From Escherichia coli (GTDB lineage Bacteria > Pseudomonadota > Gammaproteobacteria > Enterobacterales > Enterobacteriaceae): a stretch of DNA of 64,000 nucleotides. This document shows positions 1 through 8,642 of the stretch, one piece after another. Location of the stretch: assembly GCF_024298765.1 (NCBI RefSeq), contig NZ_CP101210.1; one strand, 5' to 3'. The notes under the pieces were generated by a model, which searched no databases, was not told the origin of the DNA, and saw only the letters and a list, made by a program, of their open reading frames with translations. Position 1 is the first letter of the stretch. Each line of letters opens with the position of its first letter. A program made the translations under genes and the position numbers.

Positions 1-233
1 AGCAGCGGTTGAAATTAAACCTGTCCGGAAGGCTGGCGATAAAGATTATTGCAGAGCCACCGGATAAGCGCCGTCGTGACCTGGACAATATCCTGAAAGC
101 ACCACTGGATGCGCTGACGCATGCCGGACTACTCATAGACGACGAGCAGTTTGATGAAATCAATATTGTGCGCGGTCAGCTCGTTCCTGGTGGGCGGCTG
201 GGGATAAAAATCACAGAACTGGAGTGCGCATGA
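1..233 (+). CDS. rusA: RusA-family Holliday junction resolvase, C-terminal part (5' end outside window)
   Basis: Translation contains RRRDLDN..L..LDALT motif characteristic of RusA; position upstream of Q-like gene. Confidence 0.75.
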   Translation, partial: QRLKLNLSGRLAIKIIAEPPDKRRRDLDNILKAPLDALTHAGLLIDDEQFDEINIVRGQLVPGGRLGIKITELECA

Positions 234-919
234 ATAACCAGTATTTACAGTTTGTGCGTGAGCAGCTCATTATCGCCACCGCTGATTTGAGTGGGGCAAC
301 AAAAGGTCAGCTTGAAGCCTGGCAGGAGAATGCCATGTTCGATACAGGGCGTTACAGGCGAAAAAAAATCCGGTACCGCGATGAAGTGACTGGAAAAATG
401 ATAACGCGGGATAATCCACCAATCCCGGGAAAACAATCACTGGCGAATGGCTCATCAATTGCCCTGGTCAGCCCGGTTGAGTTTTCGACATCATCATGGC
501 GGCGGGCTTTGCTGTCTCTTGAAGAGCATCATAAAGCCTGGTTGTTGTGGTGTTACGGCGAGAGTATTTGTTGGGAATATCAGATCGCGATAACACAGTG
601 GGCGTGGAATGAATTTAATACTCAATCCGGTACCAGAAAAATTGCAGGGAAAACGCAGGAACGCCTGAAAAAATTAATCTGGCTGGCGGCGCAGGCAGTA
701 AAAGCAGAACTTTTTGGTGGGGAAGGTTATGAATACCAGGAGCTGGCATTACTGGCGGGAGTGACAACTAAAAACTGGTCCAAAACATTTACTCGTCACT
801 GGGTTGCAATGAAACACATTTTTCAACGACTGGATAGTGAGGCTTTATTGTTTGTAATGAGAACACGTTCAAAACAAAAGGCGGCATTTTCAAAGCAAAG
901 TGTTGCAAAAGTAGATTGA
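224..919 (+). CDS. Putative late-gene antiterminator (Q-like), 231 aa
   Basis: Positional: immediately downstream of rusA and upstream of a promoter plus short-transcript terminator; sequence family not recognised, no Cys4 zinc finger seen. Confidence 0.4.
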   Translation: MRMNNQYLQFVREQLIIATADLSGATKGQLEAWQENAMFDTGRYRRKKIRYRDEVTGKMITRDNPPIPGKQSLANGSSIALVSPVEFSTSSWRRALLSLEEHHKAWLLWCYGESICWEYQIAITQWAWNEFNTQSGTRKIAGKTQERLKKLIWLAAQAVKAELFGGEGYEYQELALLAGVTTKNWSKTFTRHWVAMKHIFQRLDSEALLFVMRTRSKQKAAFSKQSVAKVD

Positions 920-931
920 AAGGCATATATT
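903..931 (+). promoter_or_regulatory. Candidate sigma70 late promoter (pR-prime-like): -35 TTGCAA, 17-bp spacer, -10 TATATT
   Basis: Hexamers read directly; located at 3' end of Q-like ORF, about 55-80 nt upstream of a terminator. Confidence 0.4.
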
Positions 932-983
932 TCATGCAAATCTGATATTTTGCCGATTTTGTACGTGATGGCAAAAGCAAACA

Positions 984-1010
984 AAACCCGCCCACAAGCG
1001 GGTTTTTTTG
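984..1010 (+). terminator. Rho-independent terminator (tR-prime-like)
   Basis: Stem AAACCCGC / GCGGGTTT with 6-nt loop followed by T7 run. Confidence 0.6.
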
Positions 1011-1091
1011 TGCCACTTATCTCGGATAGACATGGTGAATGCGCTGGTGGAGGAGCTAAGGGTGATTTTTAACCAGGTGATTTTTGAATGC

Positions 1092-1120
1092 TTGCAACAT
1101 TGATTTCGTAACGTTATTAT
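1092..1120 (+). promoter_or_regulatory. Candidate sigma70 promoter for tRNA array: -35 TTGCAA, 17-bp spacer, -10 TATTAT
   Basis: Near-consensus hexamers ending 10 nt upstream of first tRNA 5' end. Confidence 0.45.
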
Positions 1121-1129
1121 CCTGCGCCC

Positions 1130-1205
1130 GGCCCTTTAGCTCAGTGGTGAGAGCGAGCGACTCATAATCGCCAGGTCGCTGGTTCAAATCCAGCAAGGGC
1201 CACCA
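1130..1205 (+). tRNA. tRNA with anticodon CAU (ileX/ileZ-like; Ile2-lysidine or Met)
   Basis: 76 nt, cloverleaf with CTCATAA anticodon loop, GGTTCAAATCC T-arm, CCA end; close to E. coli ileX from memory. Confidence 0.8.
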
Positions 1206-1206
1206 A

Positions 1207-1283
1207 CCGTCACCAGTTCATCAGGAAAGAGCGTCAACCCTTTAAGTTGAGTGTGCGAGGTTCGAGTCCCCGGTGGCGGTCCA
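1207..1283 (+). tRNA. tRNA-like gene, non-canonical (anticodon loop CCTTTAA, possibly UUU/Lys; C33 instead of U33)
   Basis: Acceptor stem with one G-U, T-arm GTTCGAGTCC with one A-C mismatch, CCA end; may be a degenerate or pseudo tRNA. Confidence 0.4.
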
Positions 1284-1285
1284 GT

Positions 1286-1361
<76 letters not shown>

Positions 1362-1364
1362 TAT

Positions 1365-1439
<75 letters not shown>

Positions 1440-1445
1440 GTTAGA

Positions 1446-1491
1446 GTCTTTCAGTCTGCGATGATGGGAAATCCCGGAGTGACTGAAAGAC
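1446..1491. repeat. Perfect 11-bp inverted repeat (GTCTTTCAGTC ... GACTGAAAGAC) with 24-nt loop containing GGGAAATCCC
   Basis: Read directly from sequence. Confidence 0.7.
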
Positions 1492-1498
1492 GTTTAAG

Positions 1499-1571
1499 TT
1501 ATGAATGATCGCTTTTTTTTGCAAAATTGCTGTGCAGAAATACTAACCTTCGGGCAGGCGATCATTCATAA
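1499..1571. repeat. Perfect 14-bp inverted repeat (TTATGAATGATCGC ... GCGATCATTCATAA) separated by 45 nt; T8 run follows the left arm
   Basis: Read directly from sequence. Confidence 0.7.
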
Positions 1572-1646
1572 GCACTCTGCTTTTATTCCGATTAACTGTG
1601 GGTGGTTTGTTGGATAGAGTGCTTTCCTTACTGTATATATTGTTTC

Positions 1647-1672
1647 GCCCGCTTTTGCGGGCTTTTCTTTTC
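1647..1672 (+). terminator. Rho-independent terminator upstream of holin gene
   Basis: GCCCGC-TTTT-GCGGGC hairpin followed by TTTTCTTTTC. Confidence 0.55.
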
Positions 1673-1731
1673 AAATCCCTTTCATTTCTCAGTGTAAAAC
1701 TACGCCATCCGTTATTTGCGGAGGTGAGGCT

Positions 1732-1947
1732 ATGAAATCCATGGACAAAATTTCAACGGGCATTGCCTATGGCACCTCCGCAGGCAGTGCTGGCTACTGG
1801 TTTTTACAGTGGCTTGATCAGGTCAGTCCGTCACAGTGGGCTGCGATTGGTGTACTGGGGAGTCTGGTTCTGGGCTTCCTGACTTATCTGACAAATCTGT
1901 ACTTCAAAATCAGAGAAGACAAGCGTAAGGCTGCACGGGGAGAGTAA
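1732..1947 (+). CDS. Phage 21-type pinholin S21 (71 aa, dual-start motif MKSM)
   Basis: Translation matches S21 pinholin as recalled; strong RBS GGAGGTGAGG; first gene of lysis cassette. Confidence 0.9.
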
Positions 1948-1951
1948 TTCA

Positions 1952-2302
1952 ATGACTCAAAACTATGAACTGATTGTGAAAGGGATCCGCAATTTTGAGA
2001 ATAAAGTTACGGTAACTTTAGCGTTACGGGACAAAAAACGCTTTGACGGTGAAATTTTTGACCTGGACATCTCGCTGGACCGTGTTGAAGGTGCCGCGCT
2101 GGGGTTTTATGAGGCAGCAGCCAGAAGGAGCATCAGACAGGTCTTCCTGGATGTTGCTGCCGGGTTATGTGAAGGGGATGAGCAGTCGCCGGAAAAGCGC
2201 CCCGTAATTTTAGAGGCGCAGAATGTGTGGATAACCTACAAAGGAAAGCTACCAGGAAGAATTACTGGTTCTCTGAAGACTCCTCCGGAATCACAACCTT
2301 AA
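1952..2302 (+). CDS. Hypothetical protein (116 aa) inserted between holin and endolysin
   Basis: ATG with RBS GGGGAGAG 8 nt upstream; no family recognised. Confidence 0.55.
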   Translation: MTQNYELIVKGIRNFENKVTVTLALRDKKRFDGEIFDLDISLDRVEGAALGFYEAAARRSIRQVFLDVAAGLCEGDEQSPEKRPVILEAQNVWITYKGKLPGRITGSLKTPPESQP

Positions 2303-2365
2303 GTCACTGACCGGAACAGATAAACCTGTCCGTGGGCAGAAACCGATAAATCCTGATAAATATCC

Positions 2366-2899
2366 ATGAACGCAAAAATCAGATACGGCCTGTCGGCTGC
2401 CGTTCTGGCACTGATTGCCGTCGGTGCGCCCGCGCCTGATATTCTCGACCAGTTTCTGGATGAAAAAGAAGGTAACCACACAACGGCATACCGCGATGGT
2501 TCCGGCATCTGGACCATCTGTCGGGGTGCCACGATGGTGGATGGAAAACCCGTTTTTCCCGGTATGAAACTGTCGAAGGAAAAATGCGACCAGGTCAACG
2601 CCATTGAGCGTGATAAGGCGCTGGCATGGGTGGAGCGCAATATTAAAGTACCACTGACCGAACCACAAAAAGCGGGTATCGCGTCATTTTGTCCCTATAA
2701 CATTGGCCCCGGTAAGTGTTTTCCATCGACGTTTTATAAGCGGCTGAATGCTGGTGATCGTAAGGGCGCATGCGAGGCGATTCGCTGGTGGATAAAAGAT
2801 GGTGGGCGCGATTGCCGCATACGTTCAAATAACTGCTATGGACAGGTTATTCGTCGTGACCAAGAAAGCGCATTAGCCTGTTGGGGAATAGATCAGTGA
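2366..2899 (+). CDS. SAR endolysin (T4-lysozyme-like muramidase with N-terminal signal-anchor-release domain)
   Basis: N-terminal hydrophobic Gly/Ala-rich segment [16 protein letters not shown]; catalytic E-x8-D-x5-T motif [16 protein letters not shown]. Confidence 0.9.
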
Positions 2900-3363
2900 G
2901 CAGAGTCGCCGCGATTATTTATGCTCTGGTTATCTGCATCATCGTCTGCCTGTCGTGGGCGGTCAATCATTACCGTGATAACGCCATCACCTACAAAGAA
3001 CAGCGTGATAAAAAAGTCAGTGAGCTGAAGCAGCTGACCGCCACCATCGCTGACATGCAGCAGCGTCAGCGTGATGTTGCTGCGCTCGATGCAAAGTACT
3101 CGAGAGAATTAGCCAATGCGAAAGCTGAAAATGAAACTCTGCGCGCTGATGTTGCCGCTGGTCGTAAGCGCCTGCGGGTCAATGCCAGTTGCTCCGCAGC
3201 CGTGCGTGAAGCCACCGGACCCACCAGCGTGGATAATGCAACCAGCCCCAGACTGGCAGACACCGCTGAACGGGATTATTTCACCCTCAGAGAACGGTTG
3301 ATGACGATGCAGAAGCAACTGGAAGGGGCACAGCTATACATTCGTGAGCAATGTCTCAGATAA
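2896..3363 (+). CDS. Spanin, inner-membrane subunit Rz (GTG start assumed)
   Basis: Strong similarity to lambda Rz as recalled; N-terminal TM helix then coiled coil. Confidence 0.85.
3116..3301 (+). CDS. Spanin, outer-membrane lipoprotein subunit Rz1 (embedded in Rz, +1 frame)
   Basis: Lipobox LVVSAC, proline-rich body, similar to lambda Rz1. Confidence 0.85.
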
Positions 3364-3518
3364 AAACCGGCCAAGGATAATCCGCTAAAGATTCGCCGGT
3401 GGCGAAAGAGAGCCAAGGTGTCAACCTACGCTATTACTTATGATAATGCAACAGACGAAGCGGGACATATTGGCGCATAACAAATCAGTGCAGGCTAACT
3501 GCAGGAAGAACTTAGGGC

Positions 3519-3785
3519 GTGAACGTAGAAAACCTAAGTAACGCACATTACATCTATAACGAGATGAAAGAGCTACAGCGACAGAAAGGTATACTGGAAA
3601 GTGGTGCAGGGCTTGGTGTGACAATCCAGTCTGCCTATCAATATAGTGCTTTTCTTGAGGCCATACGCCCGCATGCAGTTGCTGAACTTAACAGCCGTAT
3701 TGAGGAAAAGAAATCCGCGCTGGTTAATTTGGGTGCTTCCTTCTCTATATACGAGCATAATAAGGCGGGTTGGAAACCCGCCTAA
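3519..3785 (+). CDS. Hypothetical protein (88 aa from GTG; 73 aa from internal ATG)
   Basis: ORF only; weak RBS; convergent with downstream minus-strand gene. Confidence 0.35.
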   Translation: MNVENLSNAHYIYNEMKELQRQKGILESGAGLGVTIQSAYQYSAFLEAIRPHAVAELNSRIEEKKSALVNLGASFSIYEHNKAGWKPA

Positions 3786-3790
3786 AGCAC

Positions 3791-4330
3791 TTAGAAACTG
3801 CGTGGAGCTGTGGAAAGAATGGATGCCAGTTCTTCCTTCGATAAATCCCAGCTTCGATTTACAGCGTCAATTTTCTTAAACTCATCAAGCATTGCGTTAT
3901 AGAGATGTTCTGTACGTGAATGAGTATTGGCAATGGGCTGTTTCTGTTCGGGGAAGCGATCAATTTTCTGATATGCCTCAATGATACTGAAGTAATCGCA
4001 TTCATTATTACCGTCGAAACCTGGGAGCTGAATTGCCCCATCATGTATTTTTAGATGATGGTCACGGACTAATTCTTTTTGCTCGTCATCACTAAGTTTC
4101 CTGAAAGCATTGGAAAGTCCGCGATACATATTCAAGACAGCAGTAACAAAATCACGATCTTCTTTACTTGGTTCGTCAACATCCAAATGTGAATATTCGG
4201 CCTTGATAACCCAATCATTACCAGATGACACAGCATATTTAACAAGCTGTGGATCAATATCAGTTTCGATACCTAGGTGGATGGCAATGTCACATAACAA
4301 AATGGTATTGATTTTATCTTTAATATCCAT
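3791..4330 (-). CDS. Accessory (moron) protein, 179 aa, resembling YfbU/UPF0304 family; reverse strand at the lambda bor position
   Basis: Own RBS AGAGGG and promoter-like upstream region; motif pattern MY..L, GFD, C-terminal region reminiscent of YfbU (from memory, unverified). Confidence 0.5.
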   Translation of the reverse strand: MDIKDKINTILLCDIAIHLGIETDIDPQLVKYAVSSGNDWVIKAEYSHLDVDEPSKEDRDFVTAVLNMYRGLSNAFRKLSDDEQKELVRDHHLKIHDGAIQLPGFDGNNECDYFSIIEAYQKIDRFPEQKQPIANTHSRTEHLYNAMLDEFKKIDAVNRSWDLSKEELASILSTAPRSF

Positions 4331-4468
4331 GAGTTAACCCTCTGAAGTAAAAAGTAATATCTACACCCGTTGGCTCATGAAGTCTATTGATCTGTCTCAT
4401 ATCAGCAGCAAATCTATTCCATGGAGATACTCAATGCAGGTCACCTTTGATTTATATAAGGGCGAAAC

Positions 4469-4819
4469 ATGCCAGCACTAATCCCACGCGCCTGCCGTAA
4501 GCGTGGATGTGCAGGTACAACCACAGACAGTTCTGGTTACTGCGATAAACATCGTGGCGAAGGATGGGTACAGCATCAACGCGGACTGAGCCGCCACCAG
4601 CGTGGCTATGGCTCGAAATGGGATGCCATACGTGCGCGCATACTGAAGCGTGATAATCATCTGTGTCAGAACTGCCTGCGCAATGGGAGAGCCGTTGAAG
4701 CCAGAACTGTGGACCACATCATTCCGAAAGCTCATGGTGGCACGGATGCAGACAGTAACCTGCAGAGTCTGTGCTGGCCCTGTCATAAAGCAAAAACAGC
4801 GCGCGAACGCATCAATTGA
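4469..4819 (+). CDS. HNH endonuclease (terminase-associated)
   Basis: Cys-rich N-terminus and H-N-H signature DHIIPKAHGGTD...N...LCWPCH. Confidence 0.85.
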   Translation: MPALIPRACRKRGCAGTTTDSSGYCDKHRGEGWVQHQRGLSRHQRGYGSKWDAIRARILKRDNHLCQNCLRNGRAVEARTVDHIIPKAHGGTDADSNLQSLCWPCHKAKTARERIN

Positions 4820-7401: not shown

Positions 7402-8642
7402 TGTTCTTTTCGGGATTATTTCAACGAAAAAGTGACGCGCCGGTGACCACGCCAGCAGAGCTGGCGGATGCCATCGGGTTGTCTTACGACACCTATACCG
7501 GAAAGCAGATCAGCAGTCAGCGGGCCATGCGACTGACGGCGGTTTTTTCCTGCGTCAGAGTGCTGGCAGAGTCGGTCGGGATGTTGCCCTGCAATCTGTA
7601 TCACCTGAACGGCAGCCTGAAACAGAGGGCCACCGGCGAACGTCTGCATAAGCTGATCTCCACGCATCCCAATGGCTATATGACGCCGCAGGAGTTCTGG
7701 GAGCTGGTGGTCACCTGTCTGTGCCTGAGGGGAAACTTTTACGCCTACAAAGTGAAAGCATTTGGCGAAGTGGCTGAACTGCTGCCCGTCGATCCCGGTT
7801 GTGTGGTACCGAAGCTTAACAGTCGCTGGGAGCCGGTCTATCAGGTCACATTCCCGGACGGTTCCACGGATGTACTGAGCCAGGAAGATATCTGGCATGT
7901 GCGCACGCTGACGCTGGACGGTCTGGTGGGACTGAATCCCATCGCCTATGCCCGCGAGGCAATATCGCTGGCAGCAGCGACCGAAGAGCACGGGGCCAGA
8001 CTGTTCAGCAATGGTGCGGTGACGTCCGGTGTGTTGCGTACAGAACAGACGCTGTCGGATCAGGCTTATGAGCGCCTGAAGAAAGATTTTGAGGAGCGTC
8101 ACACCGGGCTTGGCAATGCTCACCGCCCGATGATCCTTGAGATGGGGCTGGACTGGAAGTCGATGGCGCTGAACGCCGAGGACAGCCAGTTCCTGGAAAC
8201 CCGCAAGTTTCAGCTTGAAGAAATCTGTCGTCTGTTCCGGGTGCCGTTGCACATGGTGCAGAACACCGATCGCGCCACCTTCAACAATATCGAAGAGCTG
8301 GGGCTGGGATTTATCAACTATTCACTGGTGCCGTATCTGACCCGCATCGAACAGCGGATCAACACCGGACTGGTACGAAAAAGTAAGCAGGGCGTTTATT
8401 ACGCCAAATTTAACGCCGGGGCGTTACTGCGCGGGGATATGAAGTCCCGTTTTGAAGCCTACGCCACCGGGATCAACTGGGGAATTTACTCTCCCAATGA
8501 CTGCCGCGACCTGGAAGATATGAATCCGCGTCCCGGTGGTGATGTCTATCTCACACCGATGAACATGACCACGAAACCCTCCGATGGCAGTAAAGCCGGT
8601 AAGCAGAAGGATAACGCCAATGCAGACGAAACAACGTCTTGA
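7401..8642 (+). CDS. Portal protein (HK97 family), GTG start
   Basis: 413 aa; GGAGGT RBS; position and size. Confidence 0.85.
   Translation: MFFSGLFQRKSDAPVTTPAELADAIGLSYDTYTGKQISSQRAMRLTAVFSCVRVLAESVGMLPCNLYHLNGSLKQRATGERLHKLISTHPNGYMTPQEFWELVVTCLCLRGNFYAYKVKAFGEVAELLPVDPGCVVPKLNSRWEPVYQVTFPDGSTDVLSQEDIWHVRTLTLDGLVGLNPIAYAREAISLAAATEEHGARLFSNGAVTSGVLRTEQTLSDQAYERLKKDFEERHTGLGNAHRPMILEMGLDWKSMALNAEDSQFLETRKFQLEEICRLFRVPLHMVQNTDRATFNNIEELGLGFINYSLVPYLTRIEQRINTGLVRKSKQGVYYAKFNAGALLRGDMKSRFEAYATGINWGIYSPNDCRDLEDMNPRPGGDVYLTPMNMTTKPSDGSKAGKQKDNANADETTS

Follow-up and report, generated by a model that had tools for sequence, protein, structure and literature searches.

Identity of the gene between holin and endolysin

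What kind of gene separates the holin from the endolysin in the lysis cassette of an Escherichia coli prophage, and does it take part in lysis? The question is raised by positions 1952 to 2302 of a 64,000-nucleotide stretch of contig NZ_CP101210.1 (assembly GCF_024298765.1), hereafter the window. A preliminary description, made from the sequence alone, had presented this gene as an extra one inside a phage-21-type cassette, with no membrane segment or recognisable domain, and had suggested that it might be a lysis-timing modulator or a late-expressed cargo gene. Judging from its profile matches and position, the gene almost certainly belongs to the YdfR/DUF1327 family. We consider it an ordinary YdfR accessory gene that would be transcribed late and whose soluble product would bind RNase E or RNA, and we give this overall explanation a probability of about 0.5. 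The open reading frame (ORF) belongs to an optional accessory gene family, found at the holin-endolysin junction of many lambdoid prophages in the genera Escherichia, Shigella, and Salmonella. According to this explanation, the ORF would form part of the Q-dependent late transcript and be translated from a Shine-Dalgarno sequence in the 3' end of the holin gene, which is the endolysin's slot in cassettes without ydfR. Its product would be a small soluble cytoplasmic protein whose conserved core is acidic and whose tail is basic, recombining, and predicted to be disordered. From the homology with YdfR of E. coli K-12, the core would bind RNA, the catalytic N-terminal half of the host's RNase E (and RNase G), or both, and the protein would act on RNA turnover late in infection, not on membrane permeabilisation or cell-wall degradation.

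The elements of the cassette, with the holin gene called S and the endolysin gene R, are as follows (PGAP, the Prokaryotic Genome Annotation Pipeline; anti-SD, anti-Shine-Dalgarno).

1732..1947, + strand: class II holin, S21-type pinholin, 71 amino acids, dual start M1/M4 (phrog_9876/phrog_20; PGAP 'class II holin family protein' on the identical gene of strain MS8345)
1937..1944, + strand: Shine-Dalgarno sequence GGGGAGAG within the holin 3' end, for the YdfR-family ORF (anti-SD duplex with the 16S rRNA 3' end, -8.1 kcal/mol; R of VT2-Sakai is preceded by the same motif)
1952..2302, + strand: YdfR-family (DUF1327) gene, 116 amino acids (PF07041; phrog_406/2091; PGAP name; in-frame purifying selection)
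2303..2365, + strand: 63-nt spacer before R (anti-SD duplex +0.3 kcal/mol, no Shine-Dalgarno sequence for R; fold z-score 0.06)
2366..2899, + strand: endolysin, RrrQ-like lysozyme, 177 amino acids (phrog_7, E=2e-63; 94% identical to K-12 RrrQ)
2896..3363, + strand: Rz, i-spanin (phrog_13, E=4e-76; start taken from the PGAP annotation of the identical MS8345 locus)
3116..3301, + strand: Rz1, o-spanin, embedded in Rz in the +1 frame (phrog_3198, E=3e-29)

The family assignment is carried by several profiles. A Pfam search, which the preliminary description had proposed, assigns DUF1327 (PF07041, E=1e-41), with residues 1-112 aligned to model positions 1-92 of 93, and the statement that no domain is recognisable was therefore wrong. 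The ORF also matches phrog_406 (E=3e-67) and phrog_2091, both function-unassigned families, and PGAP names its matches 'YdfR family protein' or 'DUF1327 domain-containing protein'; no NCBIfam model matches it. The closest characterised relative is YdfR of K-12 (P76160), encoded in the Qin prophage between the class II holin gene essQ and the lysozyme gene rrrQ and starting, as in the window, 4 nt past the holin stop; the gene order in a K-12 derivative is essQ(essD)-ydfR-rrrQ-rzpQ. In a megablast search, the 351-bp ORF aligns with K-12 ydfR over nt 1-206 at 89%. The two proteins (116 residues here, 103 in K-12) have unrelated C-termini past residue 75 or so, and the K-12 ydfR stop overlaps the rrrQ start, whereas the window has a 63-nt spacer instead.

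The same search found homologous DNA in 4103 of the 5426 complete E. coli genomes (76%), at 8025 places and with up to 8 per genome. Strain MS8345 carries an identical gene in an identical S-YdfR-R-Rz-...-YfbU-HNH-TerS-TerL layout. By tblastn, YdfR is present in 101 phage records, including H-19B, BP-4795, mEp460, and phages encoding Shiga toxins Stx1a and Stx2c, and its label in phage records is 'putative YdfR family protein', with 'holin/antiholin component S' before it and 'lysozyme R' after it. The gene thus has every sequence-level feature of YdfR/DUF1327, sits where the founding member sits, and is an already known feature; as a sequence feature it is ordinary and no new kind of element, with the same family in the same position in K-12 and most complete E. 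coli genomes. The novelty first attributed to it has to be given up. The preliminary description had itself said that it would fail if the ORF proved to be a routinely annotated conserved component of such cassettes with known function: the first part of that is what we find, but a known function is not established. The interest of the family lies rather in the fact that it is among the commonest E. coli prophage genes without an assigned function, and is expressed with the lysis genes.

The family is narrow, with 64 representatives at 50% identity among 1.84 billion proteins. A scan of genome contigs with a profile of the N-terminal domain returned only four loci (E. coli, E. albertii, and two contigs of metagenome-assembled genomes that are probably mis-binned), the peptide pattern used being too Escherichia-specific to reach the members in Yersinia, Hafnia, and Salmonella. 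The scan of viral contigs yielded only alleles that are 97-100% identical, which inform on synteny and polymorphism, not on diversity. The two metagenomic contigs, L088 (Collinsella) and L089 (Bacillota), are short, and their holin and lysozyme are 93-94% identical to those of the E. coli cassette; most likely, both are prophage contigs of E. coli that were mis-binned.

Coding evidence and expression context

The ORF at 1952..2302 is intact, with 116 codons and an ATG start, and it is unbroken in all 82 close relatives, a set made up of IMG/VR loci, strain MS8345, and the window itself. In these 82 sequences, the ratio of nonsynonymous to synonymous polymorphism (pN/pS) is 0.39 in frame, versus 1.09 and 1.63 in the two shifted frames. 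Comparisons over the N-terminal 72 codons give a ratio of nonsynonymous to synonymous divergence (dN/dS) of 0.27 against K-12 YdfR (81% amino acid identity), 0.44 against the Salmonella homologue (68%), and 0.25-0.34 against Yersinia-type members (32-38%); the whole range against divergent homologues is 0.25-0.66. This is a genuine coding gene under moderate purifying selection, and no chance ORF.

The position of the gene within a lysis cassette, first proposed from the sequence, is borne out: it is flanked by the class II holin and the endolysin, which is followed by Rz/Rz1, and two traits of a phage-21-type cassette are present (a class II holin of about 71 amino acids with a dual start, and Rz with embedded Rz1). 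The holin N-terminus is MKSM, with both the M1 and the M4 start, and the endolysin N-terminus, read from sequence only, is Gly/Ala-rich and resembles signal-anchor-release (SAR) segments. The ORFs also confirm the spacings given earlier, 4 nt from the holin stop to the ydfR-family ATG and 63 nt from its stop to the endolysin start at 2366. The ribosome-binding site described before, GGGGAGAG, is there and strong, but its distance to the ATG is 7 nt by our count and not 8 nt.

Cotranscription with the lysis genes, also part of that description, fits the placement of the gene: there is no promoter- or terminator-like site from S to R, and the candidate late promoter and terminator pR'/tR' lie upstream, at about 903-1010. 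Specifically, a consensus scan, the only method applied here, found no promoter-like or terminator-like site of the gene's own on the + strand at 1947-2366, which means that its expression here depends on the late transcript. The gene occurs only once in the window, and the phrog_2411 antisense ORF described below has no copy elsewhere in it.

Protein anatomy

The protein consists of two parts of different character.

1952..2179, + strand: conserved acidic core at the N-terminus (pI, isoelectric point, 5.1), residues 1-76, with three beta strands followed by a long helix (AlphaFold2, family alignments)
2180..2299, + strand: basic C-terminal module (pI 9.4), residues 77-116, variable between alleles and predicted to be disordered (predicted local distance difference test, pLDDT, <50)

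AlphaFold2, run on a 28-sequence alignment, places the strands at residues 5-14, 18-27, and 34-43 and the helix at 50-73, and the mean pLDDT per ten residues is 78-91 over residues 1-70 and 56 for 71-80. This predicted beta-beta-beta-alpha core of about 75 residues is common to family members, and the family alignments show Y5, E6, L7, V9, V21, L25, G47, L50, Y53, E54, and A57 to be invariant or nearly so. Alleles of 72-76 amino acids consist of the core only; in the others, of 103 (K-12), 114/116, 176/183, 196, and 287 amino acids, the C-terminus is replaced or extended. Residues 78-113 of the window protein (SPEKRPVILEAQNVWITYKGKLPGRITGSLKTP) form a separate module, which recurs behind a different N-terminus in protein P0144. 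Comparison of the alleles thus marks the region 3' of the DUF1327 core as a recombination hot spot. In P0144 (112 amino acids), the C-terminal module EKRPIILEAQ.VWITYKGKLPGRITGSLKTP follows an unrelated, coiled-coil-like N-terminus, and the long alleles P0020, P0025, and P0142 have 60-170 further residues.

Structural comparison places the protein among its own kind. Foldseek against AFDB50 gave 33 matches at E<=1e-3, all of them from Enterobacterales or unnamed organisms and mostly annotated as DUF1327, YdfR, or phage protein; their genera are Escherichia, Shigella, Salmonella, Yersinia, Hafnia, Providencia, Morganella, and Rosenbergiella, and no relative with an assigned function is among the 33. 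The structure search of BFVD returned nothing at E<=1e-3, and the sequence searches of the PDB with the protein and with the N-domain profile returned nothing meaningful.

These properties bear on the possibility that the protein regulates lysis by modulating holin triggering or the activation or level of the SAR endolysin, for instance as a cytoplasmic antiholin-like or endolysin-binding factor. T4 RI, P1 LydB, and lambda S107 are antiholins or membrane regulators of lysis. The window protein does not have the membrane or periplasmic character of an antiholin of this type: by Kyte-Doolittle analysis it has no transmembrane or hydrophobic segment and no signal sequence (maximum over 19-residue windows 0.69, grand average of hydropathy -0.37), as the preliminary description had rightly said, and it does not resemble the holin. 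None of the antiholin and defence families tested includes it.

Cassettes with and without ydfR

Related cassettes that lack the gene exist, which speaks against a regulator of lysis. The query for presence or absence was a synthetic join of the window holin directly to the window endolysin. In many phages, VT2-Sakai, EDL933-Stx, and other Stx2a phages among them, it aligns in one piece across the artificial junction (690 bp of the record for a query of 687 nt); in other phages it aligns in two pieces with YdfR in between. The annotation of VT2-Sakai confirms this, with the end of S at locus position 1656 and the start of R at 1661. The K-12 genome that carries Qin also has the DLP12 prophage with essD-rrrD-rzpD contiguous. 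The comparison of related prophages that had been called for therefore found both states, and the gene is indeed 'extra' in the sense of a polymorphism, the contiguity of S and R having been verified on DLP12 and VT2-Sakai in place of phage 21 itself. Cassettes with and without ydfR are both common and long known. Those without it (DLP12; VT2-Sakai, 933W) have a homologous holin and an Rz with embedded Rz1, and VT2-Sakai has another optional gene, ant, between R and Rz.

The two states share more than their flanking genes. The junction ...GGGGAGAG-TAA-4 nt-ATG is the same throughout, but the ATG is that of R in VT2-Sakai and that of ydfR in the window and in K-12, so that ydfR takes the translational slot that R uses elsewhere. 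Since R has no Shine-Dalgarno sequence of its own in the window and uses GGGGAGAG in contiguous cassettes, carriage of ydfR may lower or otherwise change the translation of the endolysin. In an extreme form of this idea, the gene would be a dispensable passenger with little protein function, acting in cis by parting R from the strong Shine-Dalgarno sequence at the end of S. The disordered and mosaic C-terminal half would agree with such a role, as would a purifying selection that is weaker than on S and R (pN/pS 0.21 for the holin and 0.18 for the endolysin in the same 82 relatives). We nevertheless regard it as very unlikely, the least probable of the alternatives discussed here, given the intact ORF and the clear in-frame signal in all relatives, the conservation of the core across genera down to 32% identity with dN/dS of about 0.25-0.45, and its retention as a minimal protein of 72 residues in Yersinia prophages.

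The spacer in front of R was also considered as a regulatory RNA element, and this candidate was rejected because its structure is no better than that of shuffled sequences (z=0.06). Some 50 nt at its 3' end recur in front of R in the cassette of E. coli E69, in which they follow an insert of about 290 nt with an antisense ORF, and a motif ATAAATATC(C/T)ATG before R is kept among the cassettes that contain YdfR.

Each of the 80 IMG/VR loci that carry this allele has the holin 4 nt upstream of it; 76 of them extend far enough to include R, which in 74 is found 63 nt downstream. Loci with near-identical ydfR (synonymous polymorphism, pS, 0.028) have a pS of 0.41 in the holin and 0.28 in the endolysin (L003-L082 versus window 1732-2899), a contrast that is partly built in, as the IMG/VR loci were picked by their ydfR similarity. 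Flanks so much more divergent than the gene suggest that the same ydfR allele has been recombined into many S and R backgrounds.

Homologues outside the lysis cassette

Of all our results, the placement of the family elsewhere tells most about function. In Salmonella, too, a homologue of 103 amino acids (68% identical) is flanked by a holin and a closely related lysozyme, with larger intergenic gaps, and the holin beside it belongs to a different family, PF16080. This fixed S-R position in Escherichia and Salmonella, together with the tight translational context after S, speaks for a regulator of lysis; but distant members of the family (Yersinia and related genera, 32-38% identical) lie in tail-gene clusters, outside lysis cassettes and far from any lysis gene.

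The Yersinia loci show how the gene moves. Four contigs encode the identical protein of 72 amino acids from Yersinia enterocolitica, P0246; in two of them its gene separates tail genes I and J (I|J), and in the other two M and L (M|L); P0243 and P0174 are at M|L, and P0171 is at I|J. Two Y. enterocolitica prophages, one with the I|J and one with the M|L arrangement, share a block of 755 bp with 97% identity (L090 3971-4725 versus L091 3971-4725), while their flanks there are otherwise unrelated. The block begins 30 nt before the DUF1327 start and reaches the start codon of the tail gene that follows; it comprises the 72-amino acid DUF1327 gene and a convergent ORF of 99 amino acids. A block 97% identical at two unrelated tail junctions provides evidence that the DUF1327 core travels as a discrete two-gene cassette. 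Tail-junction loci of the Yersinia type were also seen in L083, L084, and L092-L094.

Convergent small partner ORFs of at least two or three kinds accompany the family: phrog_25324, and phrog_6806 and phrog_21218, which are related to each other. The phrog_21218/6806 partners occur in Salmonella and in some of the Yersinia-type loci, and phrog_25324 in others. In E. coli E69, a YdfR of 114 amino acids is followed by the insert of about 290 nt mentioned above, with a convergent ORF of 90 amino acids (phrog_2411); the window is without this insert, and K-12 likewise lacks the convergent ORF. The convergent ORFs located are the following.

L087 4311-4589, - strand: convergent ORF
L096 4309-4548, - strand: convergent ORF
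L084 3282-3506, - strand: convergent ORF
L094 4278-4529, - strand: convergent ORF
L090 4249-4548, - strand: convergent ORF

From these placements, the core gene appears to be a movable cargo unit of the late operon, for which the junction between S and R (S|R) is one of several slots, and the homologues at tail junctions argue for such a movable late-operon cargo gene and against a component of lysis. The term 'late-expressed cargo gene' in the preliminary description fits this evidence of optional presence and mobility between late junctions. Cargo genes in the late operons of lambdoid phages are known as morons, for example lambda bor and lom, and the classical ones carry their own promoter and terminator. 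The ydfR-family gene is like them in being optional between conserved late genes and in being found at several junctions (S|R, M|L, I|J), and unlike them in that, in the window, the consensus scan found neither a promoter nor a terminator around the ORF. The movement of the core gene between lysis and tail junctions is a practical reason to study its function outside the context of lysis. Modest leads for the family are offered by the mobile cassette of two genes, by the convergent partners, and by the hand-over of the Shine-Dalgarno sequence between ydfR and R.

A cargo gene might also benefit the lysogen, being expressed in the prophage state or under stress, with or without the convergent ORF, and acting in cold, in envelope stress, or in phage exclusion. 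The optional and movable behaviour is typical of cargo genes, convergent small ORFs (phrog_2411, phrog_6806/21218, phrog_25324) accompany many alleles, and the Qin cluster has been reported to be cold-induced (PMC13232886). K-12 ydfR, however, is essentially silent in standard growth, with almost no reads (PMC13232886), and the window allele has neither a promoter- or terminator-like site of its own nor a convergent ORF. PADLOC gave no match at E<=0.1 for YdfR or for three convergent partner ORFs, phrog_2411 not being among the three. Taken together, a benefit to the lysogen seems improbable to us as the main role, to the same degree as a role in lysis regulation.

Function of YdfR and the RNase E lead

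Several phages are known to encode small proteins that bind host RNase E and modulate it: T4 Srd, T7 gp0.7, and phiKZ Dip. T4 Srd has been reported to bind the N-terminal half of RNase E. The only experimental data that we found for the YdfR family, those of Gopel et al. (RNA Biol 2026, PMC13232886), concern K-12 YdfR, which is reported to bind the same half. In that work, a two-hybrid screen in which RNase G served as bait picked up residues 1-72 of K-12 YdfR three times, and the same fragment was also two-hybrid positive with full-length RNase E and with Rne1-597 (PMC13232886). Strep-tagged YdfR co-purified chromosomally encoded Rne1-598-FLAG from lysates, and its eluate contained large amounts of DNase-resistant nucleic acid (PMC13232886). 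With 81% identity across the interacting 72 residues, this lead carries over reasonably well to the window protein. By analogy, the allele studied here may act like K-12 YdfR and matter for the phage, and the binding of RNase E or RNA by the core is a tentative mechanism, to which we give somewhat less weight than to the overall explanation.

Several points weigh against this mechanism. Full-length YdfR gave a two-hybrid signal with Rne1-597 only, overexpression of K-12 ydfR altered few transcripts, and an effect of YdfR on RNA decay was not demonstrated (PMC13232886). In this last point it differs from the phage modulators of RNase E. The contact with RNase E concerns the K-12 allele only and was seen in two-hybrid assays and, by co-purification, in a lysate without nuclease treatment, so that RNA may have bridged the two proteins. 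The persistent S|R position in Escherichia and Salmonella, even beside another holin family, could also reflect a role linked to lysis.

A lysis-linked role has one further point in its favour, as a ydfR mutant of K-12 scored in a genome-wide screen for envelope defects (Paradis-Bleau et al. 2014, PMC3879167, cited by Gopel et al.), in which ydfR appears in the supplementary tables and the Keio collection was used. In the Qin prophage of K-12, at L001 4001-4842, the SAR lysozyme gene rrrQ lies immediately downstream of ydfR. The kanamycin cassette of Keio alleles reads into downstream genes, and the envelope phenotype may therefore be polar; it is plausible that it is an artefact of rrrQ over-expression. 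Overexpression of K-12 ydfR, on the other hand, caused no growth defect (PMC13232886). The preliminary idea of a lysis-timing modulator gains no positive support from our analysis and is weakened by this result and by the homologues in tail clusters; with cassettes that lack the gene and a protein without membrane segment or signal sequence, we regard a regulator of lysis as improbable.

A broader version of the RNase E reading would join it to the mobility of the family: a mobile DUF1327 cassette at S|R, M|L, and I|J of enterobacterial lambdoid phages, often with a convergent ORF, would encode an RNase E- or RNA-binding factor that retunes the decay of late phage transcripts or host mRNAs at the end of infection, as a widespread temperate-phage counterpart of T4 Srd or phiKZ Dip. 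In this full form it is doubtful, though we rate it slightly above either a regulator of lysis or a benefit to the lysogen. If the RNase E/RNA lead is true, a modulator dedicated to the RNA decay of the host would be encoded by temperate lambdoid phages, those with Stx1 and Stx2c among them, and could affect late gene expression and possibly the expression of toxin.

The surrounding late region

The window contains a textbook lambdoid late region, in which a RusA fragment and the Q-like antiterminator lie at 224-919. The features upstream of the holin are as follows.

224..919, + strand: Q-like late antiterminator gene (phrog_304, anti-termination protein Q-like, E=1e-107)
903..1010, + strand: putative late promoter pR' (TTGCAA-17-TATATT, 903-931) and tR'-like hairpin with T-run (983-1010) (promoter scan, sequence read)
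1130..1439, + strand: four tRNA genes separating Q from the lysis genes, Met-CAT, Lys-TTT, Thr-TGT, and Gly-TCC (ARAGORN)
1647..1662, + strand: terminator-like GC hairpin with T-run, 70 nt upstream of the holin (terminator scan)

Directly after Q, the promoter-like site is followed, after about 50 nt, by a strong hairpin with seven T residues (T7), and 903-1010 is probably a pR'/tR' unit that makes a short leader RNA. The hairpin at 1647-1662 would need read-through by Q-modified polymerase. An Rfam search of 900-4500 gave tRNAs and sub-threshold noise only, the latter including weak isrK/isrJ-like matches at 928-1012; three of the four tRNA genes are in the Rfam table, from which Lys-TTT (1207-1283) is missing. 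In MS8345, the identical lysis cassette lies behind a different Q gene and a set of Ile/Arg/Arg tRNAs, which indicates mosaic exchange just upstream of the holin.

Downstream of the spanins lie an ORF of 88 amino acids, a minus-strand YfbU-family gene, an HNH endonuclease gene, and the genes for the terminase subunits. The 88-amino acid ORF (phrog_5415, 3519-3785, + strand) and the YfbU-family gene of 179 amino acids (phrog_6084, 3791-4330, - strand), which stand between Rz and HNH/terminase, are a probable further cargo pair in this late region.

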